A stretch of DNA of 64,000 bases from Candidatus Auribacterota bacterium (GTDB taxonomy: Bacteria > Auribacterota > Tritonobacteria > UBA1439): assembly GCA_026392015.1 (NCBI GenBank), contig JAPLCW010000174.1:1-64000 (forward strand). Direction: 5' to 3'. Positions 21,118 to 62,622 of this stretch are shown here, piece after piece. The position numbers and the translations under genes were made by a program. How positions within the stretch are numbered: the stretch's first letter is position 1; every line of letters starts with the position of its first letter. The notes under the pieces are model-generated. The model had not been told where the DNA came from. It made no database searches and was given only the letters and a program-made list of their open reading frames with translations.

Positions 21118-21222
21118 CAAATACCAAGTGACAAATGACAGAACATATTTGTTTTGTCATTTAGATTTTGTCATTTGTCATTCATTTAGTGTCTATTGTG
21201 GTTGGTGGACAAGGAGGATTCG

Positions 21223-23084: not shown

Positions 23085-23107
23085 CGCCGCGGCAGGTTCC
23101 ACTTAAA

Positions 23108-23460: not shown

Positions 23461-23484
23461 ATCAACAAATAGTGCAGTGCGTCG

Positions 23485-24828
23485 GTGGTGCAATACATTA
23501 TGAGCGTGACCCTCGTTGAAAAAGTCAAACGCGCCGGTGTCGTGGGCGCCGGCGGAGCCGGGTTCCCCACCTGGAAAAAGATCGCCGCCCGCGTCGACTA
23601 CGTGGTCGCCAACGGCGCCGAGTGCGAACCTCTCCTCCATAACGACCAGTACATCATGTCTCGTGAGTCCGAGCGGGTCGTCAAAGGCGTAGAGCTTGTT
23701 ATGCAGGCAACGGGCGCAAAGAAGGGCATCATCGCGCTCAAAGAAAAATATCCGGATGCCGTGGCGGCGTTCCGCCACACCCTGAAAAAGAAGGAACATC
23801 TCACCCTCTCTTTTCTTCCGAACAGCTACCCGGCCGGGGATGAGTTCGTCCTCGTGTACGAGACCACGGGGCGCGTGATACCGGAGTCGGGACTCCCGCT
23901 CGATGTGGGAGTGGTCAACAGCAACGTGGAGACGTTCAAGAATGTCGCGGATGCGGACGAGGGAGTTCCGGTGACCGAGCGATACGTCACCGTCACCGGA
24001 GCGGTGCGTCATCCCGTCGTTCTCCAGGCGCCGATCGGCACGAGTTTTGCGGATCTTGTTTCCGCTGCCGGGGGCGCTGCCGTTGAGGAATATGCGCTCA
24101 TGATGGGAGGAATCATGATGGGAAAGCTCTCCTATGACCTCTCCCAGCCGGTGACCAAAACCACGGGCGCCATCATCCTTCTCCCGACCGACCATTTGCT
24201 CGTCAGGAGACGCACGGTTCCGTTCATGAGCAGTCTCCACGTGACGAGGGAGTTCTGCTGCCAGTGCACCCTCTGCACGCTCATCTGTCCTCGTTACCTG
24301 CTCGGACATGAATTGTACCCGCACCTGATCATGCGCTCGGTGCTGTTCGGCCTGCCCTTTCCCGAGCGCGGCGGGGTTACCTCCGCGCACCTCTGCTGCG
24401 AGTGTGAGCTCTGCGGGCTCTACATCTGCCCGATGAACCTCCCGATCGCGCGCATCAACGGCAATATCAAACGAAACCTGGAAGCCCTCGGGTGGGAAGC
24501 GCAGAAAAAGTGCGAATCCCCGAAACCGCGCCTTCTTCGGGAGCAGTCCCGCATTCTCGCGGACCGTCTCGTCTATCGCCTCGGCCTCAGCGCGTACAAA
24601 GGGAAGGTCCCGTTCCAGGAAAAGCAGCTTCAGCCGAGGCGGGTGAAAATACCGCTCAAGCAGAACGCGGGGGCCCCCGCGACTCCGTGTGTGAAGGTGG
24701 GCCAGAGGGTAAAACGGGGACAGGTCATCGGAGAGATCCCCGAGGGGAAACTGGGCGCCCGGCATCACGCAAGCATCAGCGGCGTGGTAAAAGAGGTGAA
24801 AGACTTTATTCTCATCGAAGCCGCATAG
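23485..24828 (+). CDS. RnfC/PduS-like flavin- and Fe-S-binding oxidoreductase
   Basis: GVVGAGGAGFPTWKK nucleotide-binding motif and two Cys clusters (CCQCTLCTLICP, CCECELCGLYICP). The ORF-track start is a GTG; an ATG at 23500 is an alternative. Confidence 0.75.
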   Translation: MVQYIMSVTLVEKVKRAGVVGAGGAGFPTWKKIAARVDYVVANGAECEPLLHNDQYIMSRESERVVKGVELVMQATGAKKGIIALKEKYPDAVAAFRHTLKKKEHLTLSFLPNSYPAGDEFVLVYETTGRVIPESGLPLDVGVVNSNVETFKNVADADEGVPVTERYVTVTGAVRHPVVLQAPIGTSFADLVSAAGGAAVEEYALMMGGIMMGKLSYDLSQPVTKTTGAIILLPTDHLLVRRRTVPFMSSLHVTREFCCQCTLCTLICPRYLLGHELYPHLIMRSVLFGLPFPERGGVTSAHLCCECELCGLYICPMNLPIARINGNIKRNLEALGWEAQKKCESPKPRLLREQSRILADRLVYRLGLSAYKGKVPFQEKQLQPRRVKIPLKQNAGAPATPCVKVGQRVKRGQVIGEIPEGKLGARHHASISGVVKEVKDFILIEAA

Positions 24829-24880
24829 TATGCGTGACGGCGTATCGGCGTGATAAATGACGTGCCAAAGAGCACATAAA

Positions 24881-24953
24881 GGATTACAGCGCGTAACTGC
24901 GGATTGGATGGACTACCGTAAAGAATCCGCCTAATCCGCGCAATCCGCGGTTA
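24881..24953. repeat. Palindromic element family TTAACCGCGGATTACGC (representative copy)
   Basis: Units of GGATTN3GCG with inverted symmetry and ends like TTAACCGCGGATT / AATCCGCGGTTAA. Further copies at ~16250-16320, 19741-19818, 23385-23412, 25828-25860, 40425-40455, 41685-41730, 41975-42009 and 63855-63985. Confidence 0.8.
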
Positions 24954-24978
24954 AAACATTAAAGGTGTCTGAACAGTC

Positions 24979-25527
24979 ATGGAACCGGCAATAGGATTAA
25001 TCGAGTTTAACAGCATCGCTTCCGGCATCCTCGCGACAGACGCCATGGCCAAGAAGTCCAGTGTCACCGTGGTCGATTCGCGGAGCATCTGCCCGGGGAA
25101 ATACATCGTGCTGATCACGGGCGATGTCGAAGCTGTCCAGCAGTCGCTTGACGCGGGACTCCAGGCCGGTGGAGGAGCAGTAACTGAGAAACTCCTCCTG
25201 CCGAACGTCCACGAGCAGGTGGTGCCGGCTCTCATCGCGGCAACTCCTGTTCACAAGATAGAGGCGCTGGGAGTCATCGAGACATTCAACGCGCCCGCCT
25301 GTATCGTTGCCGCGGATGCCGCGGCAAAGGCGACCGAGGTCCAACTCGTGCTCATCAGGGTGGGGAACGGCCTCGGGGGAAAATCATTTGTCGTCATCAC
25401 GGGCGAGTGGGTGAACGTGGAGGCCGCGGTTGCGGCGGGCATCGAGCGGATCAAGGGAATGGGAGCGCTTGTGCGGCGGATCGTAATCCCGAACCCGCAT
25501 GTCGATTTGAACAGCTTTATTCTGTAA
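24979..25527 (+). CDS. Tandem-BMC-domain shell protein (BMC-T, PduT-like)
   Basis: Two BMC domains (AIGLIEFNSIASGILATDAMAKKSSV... and ALGVIETFNAPACIVAADAAAKATEV...). Length and order match PduT. Confidence 0.85.
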   Translation: MEPAIGLIEFNSIASGILATDAMAKKSSVTVVDSRSICPGKYIVLITGDVEAVQQSLDAGLQAGGGAVTEKLLLPNVHEQVVPALIAATPVHKIEALGVIETFNAPACIVAADAAAKATEVQLVLIRVGNGLGGKSFVVITGEWVNVEAAVAAGIERIKGMGALVRRIVIPNPHVDLNSFIL

Positions 25528-25737
25528 AAAGATGACAAAGCATATCTAACCTGGATTATTCACGAGGCGCCCGTAGTAAAAGGGACATAACCACTGAGGC
25601 AATGAATATACTGAATGTTTGGACGCAGATTTGCGCAGATGAACGCAGATTAACAAAAGAAGCAGATTGAACCCTTGAGGTTTTAACCGCAAGCTGTATT
25701 TGTATCTGCGTGTTCTGTTGGGCGGATTAAAGAGGCA

Positions 25738-25826
25738 CATGCAACCACGGATGAACACGGATGAACACCGAACAGCAGAAGGAGCATTTGAACCGTGTTA
25801 ATCCGTGTTCATCCGTGGTTCAAAAT
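25738..25826. repeat. Palindromic element family CACGGATGAACAC / GTGTTCATCCGTG (representative copy)
   Basis: AACCACGGATGAACACGGATGAACAC...GTGTTAATCCGTGTTCATCCGTGGTT. Related copies at ~30470-30500, 30607-30640, 51127-51150, 53990-54140 and 60150-60220. Confidence 0.75.
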
Positions 25827-25882
25827 TTTTCAATCCGCGCAATCCGCGGTTAAGACTTTAATATTTCGTCTTTTATCCAATT

Positions 25883-26656
25883 ATGAAATCCGAACGTGAA
25901 CACCGTCAGGACATTGTGGAGGTTTGCCGCCGTATGTACTCCCGCGGTTTCATTTCCGGGAGCGACGGCAACGTGAGCATTCGCCTCGCCGCGGACCGGA
26001 TCCTGAGCACGCCGAGCGGGATCAACAAAGGGTTCCTCGCGCCATCGGATATGATCGTCACGGACATGGGAGGCAAAAAGCTCATCGGGGCTCACAAACC
26101 GACCACCGAACTCCGCATGCACCTCGAAACATATCGGAAGCGGCCCGACGTCAAGGCAGTGATCCACGCGCACCCTCCTTTCACCATCGCCTTCTCTCTG
26201 GCAGGCCAGAAGCTCCCGCAGTGCGTGATGCCGGAAATCATAATGATATTCGGCTCCATCCCCACGACAGCGTATGCAACCCCCTGCACGGAGGAGGGGC
26301 CGGAGGCGATCTCCGCGCTCATCGAGGAGTGCGATGCCCTCATCATCGAACGCCACGGCACGCTCACGGTCGGCGACACCGTGTACGGGGCGTACGATAA
26401 GCTGGAGAAGGTCGAGCACAGCGCCCAGGTGAGCGCCACAGCCCGGCAGCTCGGCCCCGTGAAGCCGCTGTCCAAGGAACAGATTCAGAAACTCCTCGAC
26501 CTCAGAGAGCAGCTCGGACTGAAGGGAAAGATATATCCCTGCAACCAGTGCGGGATGTGCGCGCCGCGCGAGGGCGGGACCAAGGCTGACCCGCTCGTGA
26601 ACTCCCTCTCCGCCGAGCTGTTCGCCACGCTACGGGAGAAACTGCGCAATGGCTAG
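25883..26656 (+). CDS. Class II aldolase (FucA/RhaD-like) with ~45-aa C-terminal extension
   Basis: GNVSIR, HAHPP and a GxxxxH metal-ligand pattern. The extension carries CNQCGMC and a terminal amphipathic helix (LSAELFATLREKLRNG). Confidence 0.8.
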   Translation: MKSEREHRQDIVEVCRRMYSRGFISGSDGNVSIRLAADRILSTPSGINKGFLAPSDMIVTDMGGKKLIGAHKPTTELRMHLETYRKRPDVKAVIHAHPPFTIAFSLAGQKLPQCVMPEIIMIFGSIPTTAYATPCTEEGPEAISALIEECDALIIERHGTLTVGDTVYGAYDKLEKVEHSAQVSATARQLGPVKPLSKEQIQKLLDLREQLGLKGKIYPCNQCGMCAPREGGTKADPLVNSLSAELFATLREKLRNG

Positions 26657-49924: not shown

Positions 49925-50404
49925 CTAGTTTCCCCATTTCTCGAGCCCGAAGAGCCAGTCCAGGGAACATGCGTACCTTCGCGCAAAGAGTATCCGGAGC
50001 GCCATCGCGAAGAAGACAAGATCCCTCACGAGAAGGTCCGCCGCCGCACCGGGTTTTGTATGCGCAAACGAGAAGCAGCCGCAGTCGAATTCGATCCCCC
50101 GCATGAGGTTGTAGGTGAGCGCAACGATGAATACCCAGAGACAGAGCGAGATTACCAGCGCCGACCCCCTGCACAGGAAACCCAGGACGAGGAAAATACC
50201 CGCGATCAGCTCGATGCCCGGCAGCACGATCGCGAACAGGTTGATTGTAAAGGCAGGGAGTATCTTATACCCATAGATGATCTTGCTGAATGCGACAGGG
50301 TCCGAGAGCTTATGCAGGCTGGCGTAGACGAACATTCCTCCCAGAAAGAGGCGCAGGACCAGCACCGTCGAGTGATGGAAAAAAGAGGAGAGTCTGTTTC
50401 TCAT
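49925..50404 (-). CDS. DoxX/MauE-family membrane protein
   Basis: Four TM helices and the LRLFLGGMFVYASLHKL pattern. GGAGGAG RBS before the Met at 50404. Confidence 0.7.
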   Translation of the reverse strand: MRNRLSSFFHHSTVLVLRLFLGGMFVYASLHKLSDPVAFSKIIYGYKILPAFTINLFAIVLPGIELIAGIFLVLGFLCRGSALVISLCLWVFIVALTYNLMRGIEFDCGCFSFAHTKPGAAADLLVRDLVFFAMALRILFARRYACSLDWLFGLEKWGN

Positions 50405-50943
50405 TTTTGCTCCTCCCCCTTTTCCAGGGAGGACCCGGCCGCTTTCCACTCCCCCAGGCCGCCGGCGAACACGCATACGTTACCAATCCCTCCCTCGCGC
50501 AGTTTCGCAGCTATTATGTGGGACTCGTCACAATCCATTCCCTGGCAGTAGACAACCACTTTCTTGCCTTGTGCAACCCCTTCGGAAATCTCACTCAGAC
50601 GATCAGGGAGCGTATCCTCCGTCACGGAGCGGGCCCCCGGGATATGATCCTCCAGGAACGCTTCGCGTGGCCGAGCGTCGACAAACAGCGCCCCTTCCAG
50701 CAAAAGGCGCTGCGCGTCCGAGAGATGGATTTCGATATTCCCGTGAGTAGATGCGTGCGCTCCGCCGGGCGAAGGAACGCCGTACGCCTTGTTCCATTCG
50801 CCGAGGAGGGGGATACTGCGGGAGGAGAACGTATTGCTGAGGACGCCCGCAAAGCATCCGGCAATGATCACCACCATCGCCTCGTAGAGTGACCGTCGGA
50901 TCTTGCGATCCCTATTCAACATGAGCGGTGCAAGATAAGTCAT
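50401..50943 (-). CDS. Rhodanese-domain sulfurtransferase with N-terminal membrane anchor
   Basis: Rhodanese fold with active-site Cys in VVVYCQGMDCDES, and FLEDHIPGARSV. Confidence 0.7.
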   Translation of the reverse strand: MTYLAPLMLNRDRKIRRSLYEAMVVIIAGCFAGVLSNTFSSRSIPLLGEWNKAYGVPSPGGAHASTHGNIEIHLSDAQRLLLEGALFVDARPREAFLEDHIPGARSVTEDTLPDRLSEISEGVAQGKKVVVYCQGMDCDESHIIAAKLREGGIGNVCVFAGGLGEWKAAGSSLEKGEEQK

Positions 50944-51229: not shown

Positions 51230-53053
51230 TTAAGCACACTTTCGAAAGATATTTACGACGCTATCGGGAAAGATCGGATCATCGATTAGCTTTCTGATTT
51301 TTGTCGGGACACGTTCGGGGGTTATTTGAACATTGCGTAATTCCTCGCGCGCGAGTGCAACGTCAAGGTCGGCGAAGCGCTCTTCTAATGTGGAATAGCC
51401 GTTGAGCAAGATCTGTGTGTAGTGGGGATTTTCCAGGTTTCTTACCAAAGGGGTATCAGCAAGCATGGCGTGCAGAGTTTTGCCCATGGATGTATTTCCG
51501 CTTTTTCTGCGGTTGCCACGCCTCAGATCGCGGAAGAAGCGTTCCATGATGTTATTGGTCCGCTGCGGTTGAATGATGATTCTCCCCTGAGGGGTTTCGA
51601 CGATGATCGGATCGGCAAAGAGTTTTTGCCAGTAGTGATCAATTTGAGCGATCATCTTTTGGTAAGCCGGATTGGTTGCATACTGCGGAGCGGACACTAC
51701 TCGCGCGCGGAATTTGCGAACCGCTTTCTCGATGCCACCCATATCGGCGTTGAGGTCGCCCGAATTCAGTCCTTCGGACCCGTGCGGTGGGGCGATGCGC
51801 ATGGCCTTGCGCAATTGATCAAAGACCTTGATCTTCGCATCAATCTGATCGAGCGTGCGTTGCAGGCTCGTATCGAAGAAAACCGGCTTCAGTTCACAGG
51901 CAAGTTTGAACAAGGGCTTATTGTCCTGCCATTCGCCGCGCAGGTGGATGTCTTTGATCTGTTCGATCTGTGTGTAAATGGTGCGTAGTCGGTTGGCAAA
52001 GACCACATGCGGACGATCAAACGGAAAGCCATATCCCCGTCCCTGATGCTTACCGGCCAGCGCCCATTGAATGAGACTGTACGCGCTCAGAATGGGGACC
52101 TCTTCGATGCAGGAACCGGCGGGGGCCTGGTTCGTAATGCGCTGAATAAAGGCGTCCAGTAACGGCGGGTTCTGATCCATTACCATCTTCAGCCGTCTGG
52201 CATGATACCGCAATTTACCCGTGATCCCGTGCCGGCGCAAACGATTTCGAATCAGGTCGTATTCCTGCCCGAAAAGGTCTTGACCGATATCCCGCAGGAA
52301 ATGATAGTGGCACACGAAATCAGGGGTGTTTGGGAAGACGATTTTGATCGCGCGCAGAATTCCGCCGCCCATGTCGTGGATTAAAGCCAGGGGCGAACCG
52401 AAGCGCGATTTCATCTCCTTGATGAAAGGAATAATCTGCTCGGCTTTTTCCGAAGGCAGCTTCACATTGCCCAGCACAATCTCCGAAAGGGAGTCCAGTC
52501 CACTCATCAGCACGGGCGCGCCGCCCTCACAGTTTCCATCCAAATGGAAGATAGAGCCTCCTTTTTCATGCATCGCCTCCCGAATTTTCGGCGTGCACTG
52601 GCGATGGGACAGCGCCAGATACACGATGAACTTCTTCCCCAAATACTCTACTTCGCTGGGGCTGATCGAAACGTTGCGCTCCCGTAACGCCTCGACGATT
52701 TCCCCGACAGTGCGATGGCTTCGGAAAAGCGCCAGGCCGACAAAAACGATTACGTCATAACCGAAACGGCATCGCTCAGGCGCCAGGCGTGCCAGTTCAT
52801 TCGAAGCGTAGACCGCGTGGTTCTCACAGTCTGCGCACTGCCGCAGCGTTTCGTGTGCGGTAAACTCGCCAATGGACATCGTGGTCGCCGTCTTCATCTG
52901 TGTCTTTCGCACCGTTAGCCGCGTCGCGCACACTGGACATGTGGTCTGCTCCGGCTCAAAACGCAACGTCGGCCGTTCCGCAAACAGAACCGGCGCTGTG
53001 TTCTCCTTCCCCAACCTCTCCATGTAAGTGTTCAGCGTGCGTAAAGTCTTCAT
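51230..53053 (-). CDS. Transposase (607 aa) with N-terminal zinc-ribbon-like Cys pairs; family unresolved (TNNxxE signature, ISL3/IS66-like)
   Basis: CPVCATRL...CADCENH near the N-terminus and TNNIMERFFRDLRRGNRRKSG near the C-terminus. It lies between the terminal inverted repeats. Confidence 0.7.
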   Translation of the reverse strand: MKTLRTLNTYMERLGKENTAPVLFAERPTLRFEPEQTTCPVCATRLTVRKTQMKTATTMSIGEFTAHETLRQCADCENHAVYASNELARLAPERCRFGYDVIVFVGLALFRSHRTVGEIVEALRERNVSISPSEVEYLGKKFIVYLALSHRQCTPKIREAMHEKGGSIFHLDGNCEGGAPVLMSGLDSLSEIVLGNVKLPSEKAEQIIPFIKEMKSRFGSPLALIHDMGGGILRAIKIVFPNTPDFVCHYHFLRDIGQDLFGQEYDLIRNRLRRHGITGKLRYHARRLKMVMDQNPPLLDAFIQRITNQAPAGSCIEEVPILSAYSLIQWALAGKHQGRGYGFPFDRPHVVFANRLRTIYTQIEQIKDIHLRGEWQDNKPLFKLACELKPVFFDTSLQRTLDQIDAKIKVFDQLRKAMRIAPPHGSEGLNSGDLNADMGGIEKAVRKFRARVVSAPQYATNPAYQKMIAQIDHYWQKLFADPIIVETPQGRIIIQPQRTNNIMERFFRDLRRGNRRKSGNTSMGKTLHAMLADTPLVRNLENPHYTQILLNGYSTLEERFADLDVALAREELRNVQITPERVPTKIRKLIDDPIFPDSVVNIFRKCA

Positions 53054-53057
53054 CGCA

Positions 53058-53705
53058 CTATATCCGTACTTTTTTTAACCCATGTTGCTCAAAAAATGAG
53101 TTAATGCTCTCGGTCGAAACCGTCAGCTGTCTCCGCGCCTGAATGTGCGCGGCGATCTGATCCGCCCTCAACTGCGGCTGCTTGATGCATTCGACCAGCA
53201 CCCAAACCGCTACCTGGGCGCTGAGCGGCGCTGCCGCCGCCGTCGGCTGGCGAGCTTCCAAGGCCACCCGTTGGCGTCGATTGATCCAGGACTGCGGAGA
53301 CAAGTACCGAAACGCCCGCCCAACTCGAATCCGATCCAACCGTCCTCCCTGGTACATGCTACTCAAAACCCCATCACAGGGATGGTGCAACTTGCCGCCC
53401 AGTTCGCCGGCGGATAGTCCCGTCGAACTCTTGTCGAGCAGAGATCGAATCGTGGCGATCAGACTTCCATGTCGGGAAAACCCGATCGCCTTGTAGCGCC
53501 AAAGACCATCACGGTCGAAAACCGGCTGGGAACGTGACGTGTACCACTTGCCATTGTCACTGTAGCTGCGAAAATAACCGATCTGTTTCAGGAATCGTCG
53601 CACCGAAATCTGCGCATAACCAAGCGCTTTGGCCAATTCGGTCAACATCCAGCACGGGTGGCGTTCCAGTAACTGTCGCAGCTGATCTGTGGGTTTTTCG
53701 GGCAT
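53058..53705 (-). CDS. IS-encoded helix-turn-helix accessory protein (orfA)
   Basis: N-terminal HTH (WMLTELAKALGYAQISVRRFLKQ). 4-nt spacing to orfB, same strand, inside the IS. Confidence 0.6.
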   Translation of the reverse strand: MPEKPTDQLRQLLERHPCWMLTELAKALGYAQISVRRFLKQIGYFRSYSDNGKWYTSRSQPVFDRDGLWRYKAIGFSRHGSLIATIRSLLDKSSTGLSAGELGGKLHHPCDGVLSSMYQGGRLDRIRVGRAFRYLSPQSWINRRQRVALEARQPTAAAAPLSAQVAVWVLVECIKQPQLRADQIAAHIQARRQLTVSTESINSFFEQHGLKKVRI

Positions 53706-54251: not shown

Positions 54252-54385
54252 GTAAGGGGTCACTTATGGGTGGTACATTGCTGAATATGTCATTCCTGCG
54301 AAAGCAGGAATCCAGGTTTCATAATGGATCCCCGCTTTCGCGGGGATGACAAGCGAAATGGATACCACCCATAAGTGACCCCTTA
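54252..54385. repeat. Palindromic ~135-bp element (family GGGGTCACTTATGG...), copy 1
   Basis: Ends TAAGGGGTCACTTATGGGTGGTA / TACCACCCATAAGTGACCCCTTAC, with inner hairpins GTCATTCCTGCGAAAGCAGGAATCCA and ATCCCCGCTTTCGCGGGGATGAC. A second copy is at 59722-59870. A solo-end copy is at ~11140-11180 and a diverged copy at ~16560-16800. Confidence 0.8.
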
Positions 54386-54543
54386 CTACGGCTGGCTGAA
54401 TTTGGTTGCGGTGAAAGCCTGGCTGTGCTATTTTCAAGTAGATGCTATGAGCAAACTCGGGCGATTGATACTAGTTACACTGCTTCTCTTGCACGCCGCT
54501 TTTGCGCTCGCCGGGTGTCAATCAACCCGGCAGAAGTGGGAAG

Positions 54544-55563
54544 ATGCCAAATACTACCTCCACAACGAGGTCGTGCGATGGTAACATTCTCGGTTCCCCA
54601 CTCGTTCTCGGGAGCCTTCGCATCCAATCCCGGTGCGTTCTTGCCCCGCTGTCGGGGGTAAGCGACCTCCCCTTTCGCCTCATCAACCGCTCCCTTGGAT
54701 GCGAACTCGCATTCGCCCAGATGATCAACGCGCGTGCCCTCATGCGCAGCAATTGGAGAACCGTTGCGATGCTCGCCTCAAGCCATCTCGACAGGCCGCT
54801 CGGGGTGCAGCTTCTGGGCGCGGATACTGAGGCAATCGTTTCTGCAGTGCGAAAACTCCAGGATTTTGATATCGACTTCATCGACATCAATGCCGCGTGC
54901 CCGGCACGGAAGGTGGTGAAGAGGGGCGAGGGCGCATACCTCCTCACAATGCCCCGCGCGCTCGAGGATCTGCTCCGGGCCGCGGTGCGGTGCTCCCGCA
55001 TGCCTGTCACGGTGAAGATCCGCACGGGATGGGATACCAGCACGCGCAACGCCCGCGAGATCGCCCGCTGTGCCCGGGATGCCGGCGTGACCGCCATCTT
55101 TATCCACGGTAGGACGCGGGCGCAGGGGTATTCGGGCGACGTGGACTATCGGGCGATTCGCGAGGTAAAGGAGGAGGTGGACATTCCCGTCATCGCGAGC
55201 GGCGACGGGCTGTCCCCGCAGCTTATCAAGAAGATGTTCGACGAAACGGGGTGTGACGGCGTGGCGATCGCGCGAGGAGCCCTGGGTAATCCATGGATAT
55301 TCCGGCGCGCGGCTCAGTTTTTTTCCTGCGGGACAGTTCCGCCTCCGCCCGCGCCTTCGGAAATCGCGCACGTAATGCGCGTGCACCTTGCTGCCTGCTC
55401 CGAACAGTACGGCGAAGAACAGGGCCCCGTTATTTTCAGGAAGCACTTTACCTGGTATACGAAGGGTCTTCCCGGCGGAAAGGCGCTGCGCCAGAAGGCG
55501 TTCTCAACCCGCACCATGGAGGAGATGGCGCGCATTATTCAAGAAGTCTGTTCTGTTTCCTGA
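54544..55563 (+). CDS. dus: tRNA-dihydrouridine synthase (Dus family)
   Basis: LAPLSGVSDLPFR, catalytic region TVKIRTGWD, and C-terminal helical domain. ATG at 54544 preferred over the TTG at 54502. Confidence 0.8.
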   Translation: MPNTTSTTRSCDGNILGSPLVLGSLRIQSRCVLAPLSGVSDLPFRLINRSLGCELAFAQMINARALMRSNWRTVAMLASSHLDRPLGVQLLGADTEAIVSAVRKLQDFDIDFIDINAACPARKVVKRGEGAYLLTMPRALEDLLRAAVRCSRMPVTVKIRTGWDTSTRNAREIARCARDAGVTAIFIHGRTRAQGYSGDVDYRAIREVKEEVDIPVIASGDGLSPQLIKKMFDETGCDGVAIARGALGNPWIFRRAAQFFSCGTVPPPPAPSEIAHVMRVHLAACSEQYGEEQGPVIFRKHFTWYTKGLPGGKALRQKAFSTRTMEEMARIIQEVCSVS

Positions 55564-57115
55564 GTTTCTGCCTGCACAGCTCCCGGTGCCTGATAATGAC
55601 CGAATCATCCAGATAGGCCGGACTCAATTGCGACGCCTTCCCATAGGCGTCGAGCGCCTTCCCAAATTCGCCCCGTTGCTCATAGATGAGCCCCATCCCG
55701 ATATATACGCTGGCGGCATACACAATATCCTTCGTCAAGTCCATCGCCTTCTGGAGCTCGACAAGAGCCTCATCGTTCCTACCGGTGAGCCGGTACACGT
55801 TGGCGAGGTTATTGTGCGCGGATGCGAAATTCGGGCGCAGCTCCAGTGCCTTCCTTGCGGCATCCTCGGCATCTTGATACATGCCGATCCGCGCATAGGC
55901 GATGCTGAGGTTATTGTATGCGTCGGCGTTCGAGGGATTGCGCGCGAGCACCGATTTCCAGAGAGAGAAGCTGCTTCCCCACACGGTATTCCTGGAAATG
56001 GTAAGGAGCATAAGACAGGTGATCATGGCGGTGATGGCGAGAATAGTTCCCCTCCCCACGAAAGCGGAACGCCGGCCCGACATCCAGGAACCCGCGAGGA
56101 GGGAAAGGGCCGCGACCGGAAGGTAAAGGTATCTGTCCGCCTTGACCACATTGGTGGGGATGATCTGAAGCACGGGAAGAAGAGAGAGTACGGCCCACAG
56201 GGTACAGAAGGAGAAAATCGGAGAGCGTTTTCGCGCCGCCAGGGCACCTGCCAGAAGTGCGAGCCAGATGAGAAGCGGGAATACACAGCTCATCTCTCCC
56301 AGCCGGGAAGGCAGTGAGACGACGTAGAGCGAGTTCAGGCGCACCGGGATCAACAACATCCTGAGGTAATCGCCCATCACCTTGAGCACCGCGAGGAAAG
56401 TCATGAATGCGCTTCCACCATGGTAAGGCAGGCTCGTCTCATTATGTGGATCAAGGAAAACAGTGGCGAGCGCGGTGATGAGCAGAGGGAGGACATAGGG
56501 AAGTTTGTTCCGGATCGATTCCGCGACTCTGCTCCTGCGGGGACCAAGCAGCAGGTCGTAAAGTACCAGTGCGAGCGGGAGCGTGACAGTGAACGGTTTG
56601 GCCCAGAGCGCGCAGAGATAGAAAAGCGCGCTGAGCCAGATGAATCGCGCGCCGCCGGACCTTGAGAAGCGGATGTAGGAGAGAAAGGCGAGGAGGTAGA
56701 AGAGCATCCCGAGTCCGTCCTTTCGGCTCGAGAGCCAGGCGACCGATTCCACGTGCAGGGGGTGAAGCAGGAAGATCGCTGCCGCAAGAAAGCCTGCGCG
56801 CGAATCCCTCAGCAGGCCGAGGCATATGTAAAAAAACGTGAGCACGCTGAGGGCGTAGAGCATGATGTCGGTGAGGTGATATCCAATTGGGTTGAACCCC
56901 CAGTAAAGATGATCCAGTGCGTGCGAGAAGACGGTCAGCGGAGGGTAACTGATATGGAAGTTCGCGAGCATGAAGAGCAGATCAAGGGATCGGATCCCCT
57001 TGTTCTTCACGATAAGATGCTCGTCGTCCCAGTTGGTGAAGAAGTTCCCGGGTATGTTGGCGTATGCCACACACACCAGCATCACCAGCGCAATAATCGT
57101 GACAACCTTCCTCAT
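55535..57115 (-). CDS. TMTC-like membrane protein: DUF1736/PMT_2-like polytopic domain with C-terminal TPR repeats
   Basis: N-terminal NWDDEHLI motif region, about 11 TM helices, and 4-5 TPR repeats at the C-terminus (AYNNLSIAYARIGMYQDAEDAARKALEL...). Confidence 0.7.
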   Translation of the reverse strand: MRKVVTIIALVMLVCVAYANIPGNFFTNWDDEHLIVKNKGIRSLDLLFMLANFHISYPPLTVFSHALDHLYWGFNPIGYHLTDIMLYALSVLTFFYICLGLLRDSRAGFLAAAIFLLHPLHVESVAWLSSRKDGLGMLFYLLAFLSYIRFSRSGGARFIWLSALFYLCALWAKPFTVTLPLALVLYDLLLGPRRSRVAESIRNKLPYVLPLLITALATVFLDPHNETSLPYHGGSAFMTFLAVLKVMGDYLRMLLIPVRLNSLYVVSLPSRLGEMSCVFPLLIWLALLAGALAARKRSPIFSFCTLWAVLSLLPVLQIIPTNVVKADRYLYLPVAALSLLAGSWMSGRRSAFVGRGTILAITAMITCLMLLTISRNTVWGSSFSLWKSVLARNPSNADAYNNLSIAYARIGMYQDAEDAARKALELRPNFASAHNNLANVYRLTGRNDEALVELQKAMDLTKDIVYAASVYIGMGLIYEQRGEFGKALDAYGKASQLSPAYLDDSVIIRHRELCRQKLRKQNRLLE

Positions 57116-57117: not shown

Positions 57118-57941
57118 GGTGTCAGAACTCCCTTATTCATTGCACGCAAAAGTATTATGACTTAATTATTACCTGATCGGGGGCGGCCCGGTGGTTTTTT
57201 CTCTGTCCTTAACACGTCCTTCTGAAGTCCCTCCAGATAGCTATCAGAACTAAAATGGCTCTGGCCGCCAAGGCTTTTCCTGATAAGAGCCGCTTTGCTT
57301 TCCTCTAGCGGAACCGAAACGATCCTTTTGTAGTTCTCAATTCTCTCTGCCATTGTTCGCCCCAGACTCAAGAAAGTTGGATTATCTTCCTTATCGATCA
57401 ATTCATCTTCCTCCATTATTACGTTCGCGCGATAGCTTGAATAATGGTATTTACCCGGATGATCTACCAGACCGGCCCGCACCGGATTTTGCTCGATGTA
57501 GCGCATGAGCGCCAAAAAATAGTCATCAGTACTGACAATGGGACTCTTAAACCTTCCTTGCCAGACATGGCCGGAGGATTTGTATTTATGGTGATAGCGA
57601 CGCGTATGCGCAATGGTTATTGCCTTCATGATATCGCTCACGGTACCCATGGAAGAAGTCTTGATCAAAAGATGAATATGATTTTTCATAAGGCAATAGG
57701 CGAAGATCTTAAAATTAAATTTATGCTTATATCTTTTTAGGATGCCAAGGTAGTGCAGATAATCGTGGTCTTCCAGAAATACATCCTGACGATTATTGCC
57801 GCGATTGAGGATGTGATGATTCAGATTCGGCAGATGTATTCTGATGGGGCGTCCCATACACTAAGCATATCAAAAAAGGCGCCAGAGCAATAATTAATTT
57901 ATATTGCATTGCGGCACAAGCAATTATCGAGTTCTGACACC
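57118..57941. mobile_element. RAYT / IS200-like unit bounded by imperfect inverted repeats
   Basis: GGTGTCAGAACTC at 57118-57130 and GAGTTCTGACACC at 57929-57941, plus about 40 bp of further partial symmetry, enclose the Y1 transposase gene. Confidence 0.55.
57162..57857 (-). CDS. REP-associated tyrosine transposase (RAYT; IS200/IS605-like Y1 HUH transposase)
   Basis: HUH motif NHIHLLI; GHVWQGRFKS; Tyr region YHYSSYRA. 231 aa. Confidence 0.8.
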   Translation of the reverse strand: MGRPIRIHLPNLNHHILNRGNNRQDVFLEDHDYLHYLGILKRYKHKFNFKIFAYCLMKNHIHLLIKTSSMGTVSDIMKAITIAHTRRYHHKYKSSGHVWQGRFKSPIVSTDDYFLALMRYIEQNPVRAGLVDHPGKYHYSSYRANVIMEEDELIDKEDNPTFLSLGRTMAERIENYKRIVSVPLEESKAALIRKSLGGQSHFSSDSYLEGLQKDVLRTEKKPPGRPRSGNN

Positions 57942-57950: not shown

Positions 57951-59348
57951 TCAGCGTATGGTGAACTCCATCGAGTCGAGCGCAAAGGCATTCGCCGCCG
58001 ATGGCGCAGCGCCCGCGGGCATGAGCCCGGCGTATATGGTCCACACACCTGCGGGTATACCATCGGGGATTTGGGTGCGGAGCAACGTACCCTCCGTCCT
58101 TTCGCTGATGAGAATCTTTTTTGCATACGCGCCCATGCCTTTTTTGATTTTGTTCGGCGCCAGGGAGAAGAGGGCGCCGGAGCCAGCAGGCCCTGCTATC
58201 ACAGCATAGGCATCGCACACAGTATCAGTCGGCTGGGCCGTGAAATTGATAAGAATCTCATCCCCCGTAGTGAAGCTCTGTCCGTTACAATTCAGTTGAA
58301 TTACCTCCTGCCGAGGCACCGGTGTCGATTCCGGACCGGCTGGCGCGACAGGGTTTACCTGGTACAAATCCGGGAGACTGGTGCTGCCGGAGAGGCCAAG
58401 GTAGCCCAGCGCGAGTTTGGCCGGCGTGCGTGTAACGGGAGCGAAGGATTGGTCCCTTCTGTACATCGAGAGAATCGTGAACCCTCCGGTTGTACCCAGG
58501 CTCAGGGTTGTGAACTGGGACAGGGGGGCAACTTTATAGATCTTGCCGTTGTTGGCGTCTGATACAAAGAGTGCGCCCGAAGAGTGCCACGCCACGTCAT
58601 ATCCGCCATCAAGACCATCCGCAATAACGGAGGCAATCCCCTCTCCCAGCACAGTGTGGCCCGCGAGCGCTCCGCTCAGCGCTGCAGCCGAGAACCGGAG
58701 AACGGTGAAATCGCCCGGCTGTACCGGATAGTTGGCTTTGCCCTTCACATAGTAGAGATTCCCCTTGTCATCCACGTCTATCCCGCCTGAATAGGTGGAG
58801 GAAACCGAAACCACCTCCGTGAGAAGCCTCGTTGCCAGATCCAGATAAAATATCTTGTTGGTGGAACCCCCCGCAGCAAACGGATTCGCGCTGATATAAC
58901 AATGGCCATTGTCAATGAACGCCAGATCGTAGGTGCCATCGAAACTTCCCGATGCGGGCACGAGATCGCTCACGGAATAATTGGATAGATCCATCCGCTT
59001 TATTTTATATTCGTATGTCGCGAGCGAGAACTCCTCGAAGAGCATGGTGTTTCCGTCGGGGCTCACCTTGACGAAGGCTCCGAACACAGGCTGCCCCGCA
59101 TCGTAGACCTTGCGCGGCGTTCCGGGATTGCCATCCCCATTCGCATCGATAATCGCAACATACGCATTATGAGCCGCCATCGGGTCGGTATACATGCCGA
59201 TAATATCGCCGTTGGGGAGGCAATCAAAGCCGCCCATGAAATCCTGACCGAGCCCCTTGACCTCATACCCCTCCGGAACCTGAACTGCACCCTGCGCCAT
59301 GACAGTCCACACCCCCAGTAATGCTGCGGCAAATAGCGTGATTCTCAT
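57951..59348 (-). CDS. Secreted beta-propeller-like protein, function unknown, under cobalamin-riboswitch control
   Basis: Signal peptide MRITLFAAALLGVWTVMAQG. Repeated strand-like motifs (GNLYYVKG, GALFVSDANNGKIYKV). Strong GGAGGAG RBS. A riboswitch leader lies immediately upstream. Confidence 0.6.
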   Translation of the reverse strand: MRITLFAAALLGVWTVMAQGAVQVPEGYEVKGLGQDFMGGFDCLPNGDIIGMYTDPMAAHNAYVAIIDANGDGNPGTPRKVYDAGQPVFGAFVKVSPDGNTMLFEEFSLATYEYKIKRMDLSNYSVSDLVPASGSFDGTYDLAFIDNGHCYISANPFAAGGSTNKIFYLDLATRLLTEVVSVSSTYSGGIDVDDKGNLYYVKGKANYPVQPGDFTVLRFSAAALSGALAGHTVLGEGIASVIADGLDGGYDVAWHSSGALFVSDANNGKIYKVAPLSQFTTLSLGTTGGFTILSMYRRDQSFAPVTRTPAKLALGYLGLSGSTSLPDLYQVNPVAPAGPESTPVPRQEVIQLNCNGQSFTTGDEILINFTAQPTDTVCDAYAVIAGPAGSGALFSLAPNKIKKGMGAYAKKILISERTEGTLLRTQIPDGIPAGVWTIYAGLMPAGAAPSAANAFALDSMEFTIR

Positions 59349-59426
59349 TGTCTCCTCCTCTCTGTTGCTTTGTTATCCGATCAGGATCTATGCACACCCC
59401 GAAGCAAGAGCCTCAAAACCGAAAAT

Positions 59427-59466
59427 AAAAAGGCCGGCTCCTAAGGAAAGGAAGAACCGGCCCAAT
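59427..59466 (-). terminator. Rho-independent terminator/attenuator at the 3' end of the riboswitch
   Basis: Minus-strand GGGCCGGTTCTTCCTTTCCTTAGGAGCCGGCC followed by TTTTTATTTT, about 80 nt upstream of the regulated ATG. Confidence 0.65.
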
Positions 59467-59671
59467 AAACCCATCGGACTTCTCCTGCCCCGAAGAAGAT
59501 TTCCCTGAGGTCTCCTGGCTTGTGGCACTCGGACAATCGCGGGCCTTCCCAATGCAGCAACCTTTACGATCGACTGCATCAGTGACGCGCGACCACTGGT
59601 CACCACTCACAGTTGCGGGGGCAGCAGCGGATTCTCACCGCTTTCCCTCATGCACTCCTCACTCAAAGATC
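59427..59671 (-). promoter_or_regulatory. Cobalamin (B12) riboswitch with intrinsic terminator expression platform
   Basis: On the minus strand: GGGAAAGCGGUGAGAAUCCGCUGCUGCCCCCGCAACUGU, then GUCACUG, then GGGAAGGCCCG, then the B12 box AAGCCAGGAGACCU, then a GGCCGG...CCGGCC hairpin followed by a U tract. Confidence 0.8.
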
Positions 59672-59678
59672 TGCGCTT

Positions 59679-59706
59679 ATTATACGACATCACCATTACG
59701 GGTCAA
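59679..59706 (-). promoter_or_regulatory. Sigma70-type promoter for the riboswitch transcript
   Basis: Minus-strand TTGACC, 16-nt spacer, TATAAT, with predicted start ~7 nt downstream. Confidence 0.6.
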
Positions 59707-60203
59707 CATGTTTTGTACTAAGGACGTAAGGGGTCACTTATGGGGGGTACATTGCTGAATATGTCATTCCTGCGAAAGCAGGAATCCAGATTTCATAGTG
59801 GATCCCCGCTTTCGCGGGGATGACAAGTGAAAGGGCTACCCCCCAAGACTGACCCATTACCTAAGGACCATCCCCAATTTCGATAAAAATAGCTGCGCAA
59901 AATAGTTTCTCACCACGAAGCACACGAAGGGCATGAAGAAGAGACAGCCTGGGAACCAACGAATTCCACTATGTTATGAGCCAGTCCGTAAGTGTATAGA
60001 CACGTCATTGCGAGGAGCAAGGCGACGAAGCAATCTCTTCTCCTTCTGTCCTTGTGCGACAGGAGATTGCTTCGCTCCACTCGCAATGACTTATTGCAGA
60101 ATCATCGATATTGCAATGGACTGGTTAGTAATTGCCTTCGTGGTGAAACCGCTAAACACAGATGAACACTGAATCACGTGCGACAATCCGTGTTCATCGG
60201 CGT

Positions 60204-60539
60204 TCATCCGTGGTTTATATTCCCTTGCGTGTCTGCTGCCTTCCCCTGTTTTGCTTTTTTTCTGCGCGCCATCGCGCCGATGCCACACGCAAGCCCGAAC
60301 GCGATAACCGTACCCGCCACTCCGGCGATGCGCGTCGCGGTGCGTCCGCTCTGGATTCCGGGCCAGGCATAGTCGGGGATCGGCGCCGCAATCACCGGCT
60401 TCCCCCCGCCCCTGTAAAGAAAGCCGTGGTCGCCCGCGATCTTTTCAAGCCCGTCCGGCCACGGGGATGCGAAGGGGGAAAGCACAAGCGCGAGCAGCAG
60501 CGCTGCACCAAGGCCGATGAGCATATCCCGGAGTTTCAT
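60204..60539 (-). CDS. PDGLE-domain membrane protein (CbiN-like partner of CbiM)
   Basis: Contains the SPWPDGLE motif and two TM helices. Overlaps the cbiM stop. Confidence 0.65.
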   Translation of the reverse strand: MKLRDMLIGLGAALLLALVLSPFASPWPDGLEKIAGDHGFLYRGGGKPVIAAPIPDYAWPGIQSGRTATRIAGVAGTVIAFGLACGIGAMARRKKAKQGKAADTQGNINHG

Positions 60540-61180
60540 GTCCGGATTCCCTCAGACCGATACACCAGATCAGGCCGCACTTTCAGCACGAAGGAGATGA
60601 CGAGGCAGGTGATGATCGCCTCCCCGATGCCGATGAGCGCATGAACCGCCACCATCGCCGGCAATGCCACCCTTAGGGGCGATGTCCCCGACAGAGCCAG
60701 CTCGCACGCGCACGCGGCGCTCGCAAGCACCACCGAACACCACGCGGCAACCGCGGTGGCCGTGAGAATCCTTCCCCTTCCCGATGACCCGCCACGAACG
60801 GCCGCATAGAAACCGTAACCCAGCACCGAACCGATAAGGCTCATATTCACTATATTCGCCCCGAGCGCGGTGAGACCTCCATCCTGAAAGATAAGGCACT
60901 GGACCACAAGCACAATACTGATGACCACCCCGCCCGCCCACGGTCCGAGAAGAACAGCCGCAAGGACTCCTCCCAGGAGATGACCCGAGGTCCCCCCTGC
61001 AACAGGGAAATTGAGCATCTGCGCGGCGAAGACGAACGCCGCCATCACTCCCATCAGCGGGACCGCCCTCTCTCCGAGAGAACGTCCAACCTGCCTCAGG
61101 CAGCACCAGATCCCTCCCACGCCAAGGATCCATAGCGGCCCCCAGACACGCGCAGCCAGGAATCCATCCGGTATGTGCAT
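60536..61180 (-). CDS. cbiM: ECF-type Ni/Co transporter substrate-capture component CbiM/NikM
   Basis: Hallmark N-terminus MHIPDGFL and the CbiM TM pattern. Confidence 0.85.
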   Translation of the reverse strand: MHIPDGFLAARVWGPLWILGVGGIWCCLRQVGRSLGERAVPLMGVMAAFVFAAQMLNFPVAGGTSGHLLGGVLAAVLLGPWAGGVVISIVLVVQCLIFQDGGLTALGANIVNMSLIGSVLGYGFYAAVRGGSSGRGRILTATAVAAWCSVVLASAACACELALSGTSPLRVALPAMVAVHALIGIGEAIITCLVISFVLKVRPDLVYRSEGIRT

Positions 61181-61265: not shown

Positions 61266-62204
61266 CTAAAACTCCATCGATAACTTCAGCCCCCCCCATG
61301 GGAGGATGTCATGGAATACGTCGTTCTCCGGCGAGTAATCGCCGTGTGCGAGACTCTTCGTGAAGTGCAGCATCCCTGTGACTGCAATATGACGGATGAG
61401 GGGAAATGTCAGCTCAAGCCCCCAATCGATGTGCGTGAGGGTGGTGTGCGCCTGGTATTTGTGGGCATCCAGGCCCATCGCCATGGACGGAGTGAAGACG
61501 GCTATCCGTTCGCCGTTTGGGGCGATATCAATATCGTGCGAAATAGACCATTCATAATACGTTCCCGTATAAATACTGAAGTCATGGTTCCAGTAGAATG
61601 TCGGCTTGAGCGGAACGTCAAGGGTGAATTCGCTCCCTATTTCATCGAAGCCTCGGCGTCTGTCGTCAAGGTAGATATATTTCCAGAACGGCTCCAGCGA
61701 AAATATCTTCCATGAAAGCGGCGCGTATACCGTGAAATCCCGCTCCATGGTGCTGGGCTTCATCCCCTTCCATGTGCTGTCGATCTGAAAGTATTCAAAG
61801 CCGGCTCCTCCCGAGAACTCGCCGAAGGAGCGCGTATACTCGGTAAAGTAGGTCTGCTCGATTTGCACACCGTTTTTAGCCCAGTCGCCGCCCTCGCTCA
61901 GCCAGTTGCTTTCAAACCGGCTTTCCGCCCCGAACTTGAGAGGGCTTATCTCCTCGATATGGTCCATGACCCGGTCCGTCCGCTGGAGCAGGGGGATATG
62001 GTTCATCAGACAAAAGCGCTCCTTCCCCTCTGAAACCTTTTCGACCTCCTCTTTGATCTCTTCCTCCTGTGGCTCAACATCGATGTAACTCTGGGCGCGT
62101 CCCGCAAAAGGGACCGCTACGACACTGCAGAGCACCATCCCCGCTCCGAGGTTCCACCGCATCGTCCCGCGCTTCCCGTACCCCCCCTGTCCTTCGCGAA
62201 ACAT
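61266..62204 (-). CDS. Hypothetical secreted protein, possible outer-membrane beta-barrel
   Basis: Signal peptide (start likely at MRWNLGAGMVLCSVVAVPFAGRA), alternating amphipathic strands, C-terminal ...LKLSMEF. Confidence 0.45.
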   Translation of the reverse strand: MFREGQGGYGKRGTMRWNLGAGMVLCSVVAVPFAGRAQSYIDVEPQEEEIKEEVEKVSEGKERFCLMNHIPLLQRTDRVMDHIEEISPLKFGAESRFESNWLSEGGDWAKNGVQIEQTYFTEYTRSFGEFSGGAGFEYFQIDSTWKGMKPSTMERDFTVYAPLSWKIFSLEPFWKYIYLDDRRRGFDEIGSEFTLDVPLKPTFYWNHDFSIYTGTYYEWSISHDIDIAPNGERIAVFTPSMAMGLDAHKYQAHTTLTHIDWGLELTFPLIRHIAVTGMLHFTKSLAHGDYSPENDVFHDILPWGGLKLSMEF

Positions 62205-62205: not shown

Positions 62206-62622
62206 CTATTCGATTCCCTTTCCGGTAGAACTCATGGTGACCTGAAGATGCTTTACCCCGCGGCATGCGCCCAGCTGATCGGCAAGTGCCTTTATCTTCC
62301 CCGGCACTCCCCGCACCACAACCACCTCGAGACAATTGCATTGGTCAAGGTGGATATGCTGGGAGGACAGTATTTCAGTATAGTAATGATGCTGAATGTC
62401 GAGAAGCCTTGACGTGAGCTCGCGCTGATGGTGGTTGTAGATCATGGTGATCGTACCCACTACCTCCTTCCCCTCCGCCCATTCCTGCACAATGAGCTTT
62501 TCGCGCACGATGTCCGCCAATGCCTTCGAACGATTGCCGTATCCCTTCCGGCGCATGAGCCGGTCGAACTTGTCCAGGAGCCCCTTTTCAAGCGATACGC
62601 CGAAACGCACAATGCCCGCCAT
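62206..62622 (-). CDS. nikR: Nickel-responsive transcriptional regulator NikR
   Basis: Ribbon-helix-helix N-terminus (RFGVSLEKGLLDKFD...GYGNRSKALADIVRE) and C-terminal metal-binding domain with His cluster (HHQRE...HH...HIHLD...C). Confidence 0.85.
   Translation of the reverse strand: MAGIVRFGVSLEKGLLDKFDRLMRRKGYGNRSKALADIVREKLIVQEWAEGKEVVGTITMIYNHHQRELTSRLLDIQHHYYTEILSSQHIHLDQCNCLEVVVVRGVPGKIKALADQLGACRGVKHLQVTMSSTGKGIE

Follow-up and report, generated by a model that had tools for sequence, protein, structure and literature searches.

A 64,000-nt stretch of DNA from a Candidatus Auribacterota bacterium (positions 1–64,000 of contig JAPLCW010000174.1, assembly GCA_026392015.1; hereafter, the window) carries on its minus strand a cobalamin riboswitch that directly precedes a gene for a 465-aa β-propeller protein with an export signal, and we find that this pairing is kept across phyla. 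What is new is an uncharacterised cross-phylum protein family whose only invariant trait is B12 control; the riboswitch itself is of a known kind. On the sequence evidence, we propose with moderate confidence that the product is a B12-repressed extracytoplasmic corrinoid-acquisition protein, most likely a soluble or envelope-associated corrinoid binder, that would capture B12-type cofactors outside the cytoplasm and pass them to the importers of the cell. Such a role, which would parallel that of BtuG, BtuH, BtuJ, and BtuK in Bacteroides on an unrelated fold, best explains the membership of the family in the B12 regulon, the occurrence of its relatives in operons with a B12 importer and a transcobalamin-like protein, and the Sec export signal. 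A literature search, largely without subscription-journal papers, gave no account of this family or of B12-riboswitch-regulated NHL/lactonase-like proteins.

The riboswitch aptamer lies at 59495..59684 on the minus strand and matches the Rfam family RF00174 over model positions 1–189 with a score of 82.8 bits (E value 6.9e-19), compared with a gathering score of 31.5; it was the sole Rfam family matched when all 64 kb of the window were scanned with Rfam 15. A reading made earlier from the letters of the DNA (hereafter, the sequence-only reading) had recognized a cobalamin-riboswitch core here, and all the elements that it quoted are present. On the minus strand, the aptamer contains the motifs GAGGGAAAGCGGUGAGAAUCCGCUGCUGCCCCCGCAACUGU and GGGAAGGCCCG and the B12 box AAGCCAGGAGACCU (59521..59508), together with GGGAA...GGUG...CC, GCCCCCGCAACUG, and the P6-extension motif GUCACUG, and its L5 loop, GCCCCCGC, is identical in 14 related leaders. 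The sigma-70-type promoter that had been proposed, TTGACC-N16-TATAAT, is found at 59679..59706 on the minus strand (−35 box at 59706..59701, 16-nt spacer, −10 box at 59684..59679) and agrees with the consensus at 11 of 12 positions. Because the 5′-most model positions of RF00174, about nine in number, align onto the −10 hexamer TATAAT, the RNA probably starts near 59672. The promoter is the best of four sites in the 3.4 kb scanned, and shuffled sequence yields 3.8 sites; because promoter-like sites are about as numerous as in shuffles, we regard it as plausible but not proven.

Just 3′ of the aptamer, folding and conservation identify a P13-like hairpin, UCUUCUUC-GGGGCA-GGAGAAG (59479..59499, minus strand), which is followed by an intrinsic terminator acting as a putative attenuator (59422..59463, minus strand). 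The terminator consists of a 12-bp stem, GGGCCGGUUCUU/AGGAGCCGGCC(U), with a 9-nt loop and then UUUUUAUUUU extending to 59422, and RNAfold assigns −19.6 kcal/mol to the stem at 59463..59432. A consensus terminator scanner did not detect it because the loop is 9 nt, whereas RNAfold did. The hairpin and U-tract of the attenuator are thus where the sequence-only reading had them, but the end of the U-tract is about 60 nt from the GGAGG of the ribosome-binding site (RBS) rather than about 80. The strong RBS, GAGGAGGAG (59352..59360, minus strand), has this GGAGG at 59358..59354, 5 nt upstream of the ATG at 59348 from which the 465-aa open reading frame (ORF) runs to 57951, as had been read, and AAAGGAGG-type sites occupy the equivalent position in related loci. 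Compared with terminating OFF switches of the class-I/adenosylcobalamin type in RF00174, the leader shares the full-length match, the B12 box, the P6 extension, the potential for an L5/L13 kissing loop, and the intrinsic terminator platform. The RNA elements are ordinary and the riboswitch is of a textbook type; only the regulated gene is unusual. Upstream of the leader, 25 nt from the −35 box, we observed an element of about 125 bp that resembles a miniature inverted-repeat transposable element (MITE; 59731..59855, minus-strand read), with imperfect 19-nt terminal inverted repeats (GGGTCAGTCTTGGGGGGTA ... TACCCCCCATAAGTGACCC) and the internal palindromes CCCCGCGAAAGCGGGG and GGATTCCTGCTTTCGCAGGAATGAC. 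A near-identical second copy lies at about 54265..54390, and a third site shares the core palindrome at 19873..19889, which gives three exact 17-mers in the window where 0.48 would be expected by chance.

The riboswitch is genuine, and the folding predictions suggest that it represses the propeller gene by transcription termination when B12 is present. In published cobalamin riboswitch structures, L5 and L13 form a kissing loop; here, the GGGG loop of the P13-like hairpin is complementary to the CCCC of L5 (predicted duplex, −15.9 kcal/mol). For the nascent transcript at the stage before synthesis of the terminator 3′ arm, the minimum free energy (MFE) structure is not the P13-like hairpin but an antiterminator (−17.8 kcal/mol), in which the loop and 3′ arm of that hairpin are predicted to pair with the 5′ arm of the terminator, and the antiterminator and terminator are predicted to be mutually exclusive. 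We did not use the MFE z-score of the whole leader as evidence; at −1.26 it is unremarkable, which is expected because the leader is a multi-state RNA. In the mechanism suggested by these foldings, the promoter would drive a class-I-like cobalamin riboswitch within a self-contained, B12-repressed transcription unit. With a corrinoid bound, L5 would kiss the GGGG loop and hold P13 closed, which would leave the terminator arm free, so that the GC-rich hairpin and U-tract could form and transcription would stop about 75 nt before the start codon (OFF). Under B12 scarcity, P13 would give up its 3′ arm to pairing with the 5′ arm of the terminator, and this antiterminator would let RNA polymerase read through into the ORF, which would be translated from its strong Shine–Dalgarno sequence.

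The same layout recurs in related leaders. The order of aptamer, P13-like hairpin, T-tract terminator, spacer, AAGGAGG, and start codon is found in 14 of 15 related leaders, and a clear hairpin with a T-tract is present in 13 of the 15 that were scanned. The T-tract of one leader (locus L008) is interrupted after an intact hairpin, and another (L021) has no room for a terminator and carries a short, RBS-proximal platform instead. In the leader of L005, the P13 stem is a compensatory variant, CUCCUCC/GAGGAGG.

The regulated gene (57951..59348, minus strand) encodes a protein identical to NTZ78_13015, a "hypothetical protein" in the NCBI entry of a metagenome-assembled genome (MAG) of a Candidatus Aureabacteria bacterium (Auribacterota). 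Residues 1–18 (59295..59348, minus strand) form an N-terminal signal peptide, composed of MR, a 15-residue hydrophobic core, and VMA|QG, which we read from the sequence and its hydropathy. The core has a mean Kyte–Doolittle value of 2.1 (residues 3–17), residues 1–19 have a predicted local distance difference test score (pLDDT) below 50, and a hydrophobic N-terminal segment is present in all 34 aligned homologs. There is no lipobox Cys, and the family does not conserve a Cys close to the cleavage site. Judged by these features, the signal is of the Sec/signal peptidase I type, and the protein is probably exported by Sec to a location outside the cytoplasm. The evidence reaches as far as a Sec export signal only, which is less than the surface factor of the sequence-only reading. 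In locus L012 and in the homologs P0004, P0005, P0007, P0008, and P0023, an upstream in-frame start places about 40 extra residues (MRTGLIAG...VFNFSPRRTRRSQRKEAK) ahead of the normal signal peptide. Both starts have their own RBS-like GGAGG, and the longer form may reflect either an error of gene calling or the use of an alternative start.

The rest of the protein comprises two domains. An AlphaFold2 model built with the 34-sequence alignment (pLDDT 87.8; predicted template modeling score, pTM, 0.71) shows 24 strands between residues 28 and 333, arranged as six blades of four strands each, with blade 6 completed by the N-terminal strand. This propeller domain covers residues ~21–333 (58350..59288, minus strand), includes a DANGDGxP loop at residues 68–75, and is joined by a linker modeled with low confidence (residues 337–346) to a C-terminal immunoglobulin (Ig)/FnIII-like β-sandwich (residues ~350–465; 57954..58301, minus strand) with invariant D379 and Y381. 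No Pfam family matched the ORF at an E value of 0.01 or less, and the only NCBIfam match was a weak ScyE-like fragment (21.7 bits compared with a cutoff of 80) that we disregarded. The earlier description of a signal-peptide β-propeller without a match to a transporter or enzyme family is thereby borne out. Foldseek agrees with the six-bladed assignment, and a profile of the family alignment matched only NHL-repeat proteins among all PDB sequences, through a single blade (residues 239–274). The six four-stranded blades are the topology of the NHL/SGL superfamily, but the thresholds of the NHL (PF01436) and SGL (PF08450) profiles are not reached. Compared with the SGL/SMP-30/gluconolactonase and NHL propellers (Drp35, 2DG0; the PknD sensor, 1RWI; the lactonases 2P4O, 8DJF, and 3DR2), the protein is 10–16% identical, remains below all Pfam and NCBIfam thresholds, and does not appear to conserve all canonical catalytic metal ligands; we know of none of these families that is B12-regulated. 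The C-terminal domain most resembles RbmA, a biofilm scaffold protein, and matches generic FnIII/MG sandwiches, and the mature proteins of the family are acidic (pI 4.0–4.9).

To follow the riboswitch–gene pairing across relatives, we collected homologs of the propeller protein. The homolog searches gave 35 relatives with 42–81% identity; by scanning genome and metagenome collections we located 21 loci, and protein look-ups added more. The full-length family is represented by 14 distinct loci including the window, with homologs 42–55% identical, and the riboswitch is immediately upstream in 12 of them. Besides the window, the loci in which an RF00174 match directly precedes the gene on its strand are L001, L002, L003, L004 (also L018), L005, L012, L013, L015, L019 (L020), L022 (L023 and L024), and L025 (L026). 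L001 and L002 come from a single MAG, which has two paralogs with a separate riboswitch for each. In L016 (L017), a propeller-only paralog stands between the riboswitch and the full-length gene. The only full-length locus without an RF00174 match, L014, has just 328 nt of upstream sequence, which is too short for an aptamer at the usual distance. The aptamers of the family differ clearly in sequence and score between 57 and 124 bits. Members of the close family are flanked by otherwise unrelated genes of the housekeeping kind (enolase, ZnuA, rhodanese, a papain-like protease, an α/β hydrolase, fmt/def, and others), which leaves the riboswitch as the only constant partner, and clustering of the gene neighborhoods of 26 loci revealed no conserved transporter partner in the close family.

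The pairing also extends to distant relatives that are 27–31% identical over the propeller. Five such loci have a riboswitch upstream: L007, L008, L009, and L011, which are of Verrucomicrobiota type (three of the four records are labeled Verrucomicrobiota), and L021, which encodes a 1,387-aa fusion. The pairing is not due to chance, because a genome has only a handful of cobalamin riboswitches, and it survives shifts in aptamer sequence, platform, and gene architecture. The propeller family thus belongs to the B12 regulon of at least three deep lineages, and the conservation of the riboswitch–gene pair in related genomes that the sequence-only reading had made a point to be checked is present in the 12 full-length loci and these five. 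An exhaustive profile search found the full-length architecture to be rare (six to seven clusters at 50% identity), whereas the propeller domain alone (profile positions ~9–333) recurs in dozens of longer proteins.

Two further features of the Verrucomicrobiota-type loci were observed. In all four, a gene for a prepilin-type protein with N_methyl and DUF1559 domains follows the propeller gene (e.g., 9180..9932 of L009), which raises the possibility that B12 uptake involves some members of the very numerous DUF1559 pseudopilin-like proteins found in Planctomycetes–Verrucomicrobia–Chlamydiae (PVC) bacteria. L008 has a second cobalamin riboswitch (125..308, plus strand; 123.7 bits), downstream of which the plus strand carries no credible gene. 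The convergent gene whose 3′ end it faces encodes a 1,092-aa protein with propeller-type repeats in its C-terminal part, and this riboswitch may be an orphan copy or control an antisense transcript. The plus-strand ORFs after the first riboswitch of L008 were judged to be spurious antisense ORFs.

An independent link to B12 import comes from relatives of Planctomycetales type. In L006, L010, L027, and L029, a gene for a fusion of the propeller domain with a right-handed β-helix ends a conserved operon, in which it is preceded, in order, by genes for a 1,100- to 1,280-aa He_PIG Ig-repeat protein, a DUF4430 protein, CbiQ/EcfT, a fused double ATPase (EcfA) of the energy-coupling factor (ECF) type, and an ECF S component. 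The only significant PDB match of the S component from L029 is 6FNP_A, at an E value of 6e-13 and over nearly its full length, and 6FNP is the ECF-CbrT vitamin B12 importer (PMC5997447). B12 carriers of the transcobalamin family have DUF4430 as their C-terminal domain (PMC4350170). The operon of L029 is headed by an RF00174 riboswitch (69.9 bits) 11 nt before its first gene, a gene for a B12-binding radical-SAM protein follows the operon in L027, and in L016, which belongs to the full-length family, a He_PIG-related 447-aa protein with its own riboswitch adjoins the propeller genes. The Planctomycetales relatives are thus co-operonic with a CbrT-like S component, EcfT, EcfA, and DUF4430, and one of these operons is riboswitch-led. 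The window differs from them: its gene is monocistronic and stands outside any operon of ECF T, A, and CbrT-like S genes, there are no ECF-CbrT genes in the window, and the ECF genes nearby (cbiM and the PDGLE gene) are of the Ni/Co type under NikR. Together with the cross-phylum riboswitch pairing, the riboswitch-led ECF-CbrT/DUF4430 operon gives the B12-scavenging role suggested by the sequence-only reading better support than it had. MAGs of Auribacterota are reported to encode cobalamin ABC (ATP-binding cassette) importers and are drawn with an outer membrane (PMC9324843), which fits a scavenging lifestyle.

Because the sequence-only reading had likened the protein to BtuG, we compared it with the B12 binders of Bacteroides, among them the BtuG surface lipoproteins (PDB 8BMZ, 8BMX, and 8P98; PMC10404256, PMC6143338, PMC13616437). 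BtuG paralogs and BtuK are seven-bladed, lipid-anchored surface proteins, and BtuG caps BtuB (review PMC13616437; PMC10404256). Both BtuG and the window protein are acidic, exported β-propellers in a B12-regulated regulon, and they would share the presumed job of capturing corrinoids outside the cell for an importer. BtuG, however, has seven blades and a lipid anchor and is encoded beside BtuB, whereas the window protein is a six-bladed NHL/SGL-like propeller with a C-terminal Ig domain, and its family occurs in Auribacterota/PVC-type lineages rather than in Bacteroides. No BtuG, BtuK, BtuH, or BtuJ chain appears among the PDB matches of the family profile at an E value of 10 or less or among the fold matches listed, and this profile found no solved B12-binding protein similar in sequence. 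Neither the window nor any homolog locus examined has an adjacent TonB-dependent receptor or BtuB. We therefore rejected membership in the BtuG family on the grounds of blade number, the missing lipobox, the missing adjacent TonB-dependent transporter, and the absence of a BtuG sequence or top fold match, and the earlier label of a BtuG-type protein does not hold; the propeller protein would be at most an analog of BtuG and not a homolog. BtuK1 (PKD and a seven-bladed propeller; PDB 9S6C), BtuH, and BtuJ/DUF4465 likewise combine an Ig-like domain with a propeller or another β-rich module and belong to the B12 regulon as accessory B12 binders rather than transporters. The window protein differs from them in domain order and blade number and shows no sequence similarity to them, and its C-terminal domain resembles generic FnIII/MG sandwiches, not known B12-binding domains.

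Several observations count against a corrinoid binder under B12 control. No corrinoid-binding motif is identifiable in the propeller protein, the residues conserved superfamily-wide are mostly structural, and the fold class (SGL, NHL, DFPase, and strictosidine-synthase-like) is rich in Ca-dependent hydrolases and lactonases. No transporter gene adjoins the propeller gene in the window or in any close-family locus. In the scan for RF00174, the ECF operon of L027 had no detectable riboswitch, and the operon starts of L006 and L010 fall at the edge of the available sequence. In the leader, the promoter is a consensus match only, and the antiterminator pairing is less obvious in some relatives (L004 and L005).

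The fold class raises the question of whether the protein is instead a secreted enzyme of B12 acquisition, that is, a Ca-dependent hydrolase- or lactonase-type propeller that is made only under B12 scarcity and frees or converts corrinoids outside the cell. It might, for instance, detach them from carrier proteins or debris, or repair or remodel inactive analogs. Many of the best structural neighbors are enzymes (the lactonases 2p4o, 8djf, and 3dr2; Drp35, DFPase, PON1, sGDH, and strictosidine synthase), but equally good ones are non-enzymatic binders (the PknD sensor, NHL domains, lectins, and the YWTD propellers of LRP and nidogen). The only functional name from any source is "sugar lactone lactonase YvrE", given by the Joint Genome Institute (JGI) to homolog P0010, and the Verrucomicrobiota relative in L008 scores 25.9 bits on the Pfam SGL model, just under the cutoff of 26.3; the window protein itself matches no enzyme family. 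Across 37 superfamily members, D42, D48, D141, S153, N155, N164, and the DxNxDGxP loop are widely conserved. We searched these members for a central metal site of the SGL/DFPase type, in which acidic or amide residues on the inner strands of blades 1, 3, 4, and 5 serve as ligands, and assigned ligand positions from the DSSP string only. D42 and D141 at the tops of inner strands are kept together with N155 and N164, as an enzyme would lead one to expect. D191 and D251 vary, however, and W254/H255 are restricted to the close family, so that an intact four-ligand site is not apparent. We know of no extracellular corrinoid-processing enzyme of this propeller fold, and on balance we consider an enzyme unlikely.

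Other explanations leave the vitamin itself untouched. A surface or adhesion factor, induced by B12 limitation to attach the cell to B12 producers, particles, or host surfaces, would extend to the operon partners in other phyla (He_PIG Ig-repeat proteins, β-helix fusions, and DUF1559 pseudopilin-like proteins) and would suit both the adhesin-typical domains around the family (He_PIG, β-helix/NosD, Ig-like, and N_methyl/DUF1559) and the proximity of the C-terminal domain to RbmA. We nevertheless regard it as decidedly improbable: the window protein has no lipobox, sortase motif, PEP-CTERM, or autotransporter domain, the co-operonic complete B12 importer and transcobalamin-like protein argue for direct ligand handling, and Bacteroides proteins with the same kinds of domains bind B12 (PMC13616437). 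A B12-independent substitute that, like metE or nrdAB, takes over a B12-dependent function when the vitamin is missing would agree with a gene that stands alone, without transport genes, in the close family. B12-independent isozymes are moreover a classical class of cobalamin-riboswitch-repressed genes. The protein, though, appears to be Sec-exported and resembles no metabolic isozyme in sequence, the ECF-CbrT/DUF4430 operon context suggests uptake, and apart from respiratory reductive dehalogenases we know of no extracytoplasmic B12-dependent enzymes that could be replaced, which makes a substitute very improbable. Last, leader and gene might move together as a mobile cassette, so that the riboswitch association would be an accident of lineage and the protein would be unrelated to B12. 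Mobile elements do surround the unit, with the MITE upstream, a transposase gene immediately downstream, and insertion sequence (IS) genes nearby, and the unit is inserted in unrelated contexts in different genomes. Yet the pairing persists to 27–31% protein identity, over the full range of aptamer scores, platforms (including the RBS-proximal one of L021), and architectures, and purifying selection on regulation over such a protein distance implies function; given the independent link to ECF-CbrT as well, an accident is already disfavored and, in our view, hardly credible. A corrinoid binder outside the cytoplasm, although corrinoid binding itself is deduced from regulation, context, and export, thus remains the reading that we prefer.

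The genes around the propeller gene in the window provide a further context. As described in the sequence-only reading, nikR (62206..62622), cbiM (60536..61180), and the PDGLE gene (60204..60539) lie upstream on the same minus strand; an ARMT1-like phosphatase gene is also upstream on this strand, and a gene for a 312-aa protein of unknown function separates nikR from cbiM. A functional coupling of the propeller gene to this Ni/Co ECF module was rejected because the module is missing from most family loci; the arrangement occurs only in the closest relatives, L012 and L013, and is absent elsewhere, so that the adjacency looks like local synteny. Lineage-local synteny is all that we found beyond the riboswitch in the close family, with NikR-X-CbiM-PDGLE upstream and a REP-associated tyrosine transposase (RAYT) and a TPR membrane protein downstream (the window, L012, L013, L025, and L001). 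The 312-aa protein (61266..62204, minus strand) has a signal-like N-terminal segment and no Pfam or NCBIfam match, its arrangement is conserved in L012, and it may be an outer-membrane or periplasmic component of Ni/Co uptake.

Downstream of the propeller gene, the minus strand immediately encodes a 231-aa RAYT/IS200-like Y1 transposase (57162..57857), and no minus-strand terminator was found between the two genes. The RAYT gene occupies the same position in L012, L013, and L025/L026, and the propeller proteins of these loci are only ~50–55% identical to that of the window, which suggests that it is a vertically inherited, domesticated RAYT. A 526-aa protein (55535..57115, minus strand) has a multi-pass membrane N-terminal part, without a Pfam match, and C-terminal TPR repeats. 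Its gene comes after the propeller gene or the RAYT gene, in the same orientation, not only in the window but also in L001, L012, and L025; the product may be a glycosyltransferase of the GT-C/TMTC kind, and the gene may belong to the same transcription unit. Farther along, an IS-like gene pair (51230..53705, minus strand), which encodes a 215-aa HTH_32 protein and a 607-aa protein without a Pfam match, sits between a rhodanese gene (50401..50943) and the riboswitch region. In L025, the rhodanese gene adjoins the riboswitch–propeller unit with only a called ORF of 56 aa in between, which suggests that mobile DNA has rearranged the locus in the window. Elsewhere in the window, a bacterial microcompartment (BMC) locus (20827..26656, plus strand) encodes BMC-H (PF00936), EutN/BMC-P (PF03319), an aldehyde dehydrogenase, an RnfC/PduS-like flavoprotein (Complex1_51K+SLBB+Fer4+RnfC_N), a tandem-BMC shell protein, and a class II aldolase, a make-up that resembles the B12-independent PVM (Planctomycetes–Verrucomicrobia) type of BMC for sugar phosphates and aldehydes.

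Beyond the window, the propeller domain could be the hallmark of a new, phylogenetically broad family that binds corrinoids outside the cytoplasm, occurs in Auribacterota, Verrucomicrobiota, Planctomycetota, and their relatives, and is plugged lineage-wise into different uptake machines; we put this forward tentatively, from sequence comparisons, as a possibility that is close to evenly balanced. Such a family may be non-homologous to BtuF, BtuG, BtuH, BtuJ, BtuK, transcobalamin, and CbrT, and its members may act alone, as in the window, together with a DUF1559 pseudopilin-like protein in Verrucomicrobiota, or fused to a β-helix at the end of the ECF-CbrT/DUF4430/He_PIG operon in Planctomycetales. 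Most microbes need B12 but few make it, and capture proteins consequently shape microbial communities; extracellular B12 capture is largely unknown outside Proteobacteria and Bacteroides. With a riboswitch as its sole constant neighbor down to 27% identity, an importer in the same operon in relatives, and a confident structural model, a "hypothetical protein" becomes a testable candidate. Should the protein turn out to be catalytic, extracellular corrinoid processing would gain its first enzyme with this fold. Should it bind corrinoids, it would represent a third independent invention of a propeller-based B12 catcher and a marker for B12 scavenging in uncultivated phyla, and its DUF1559 pseudopilin-like, He_PIG, and DUF4430 partners would become candidate relay components. 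If the wider proposal is true as well, PVC-type and candidate-phylum bacteria would own a multi-protein extracellular B12 relay that evolved independently of that in Bacteroides.

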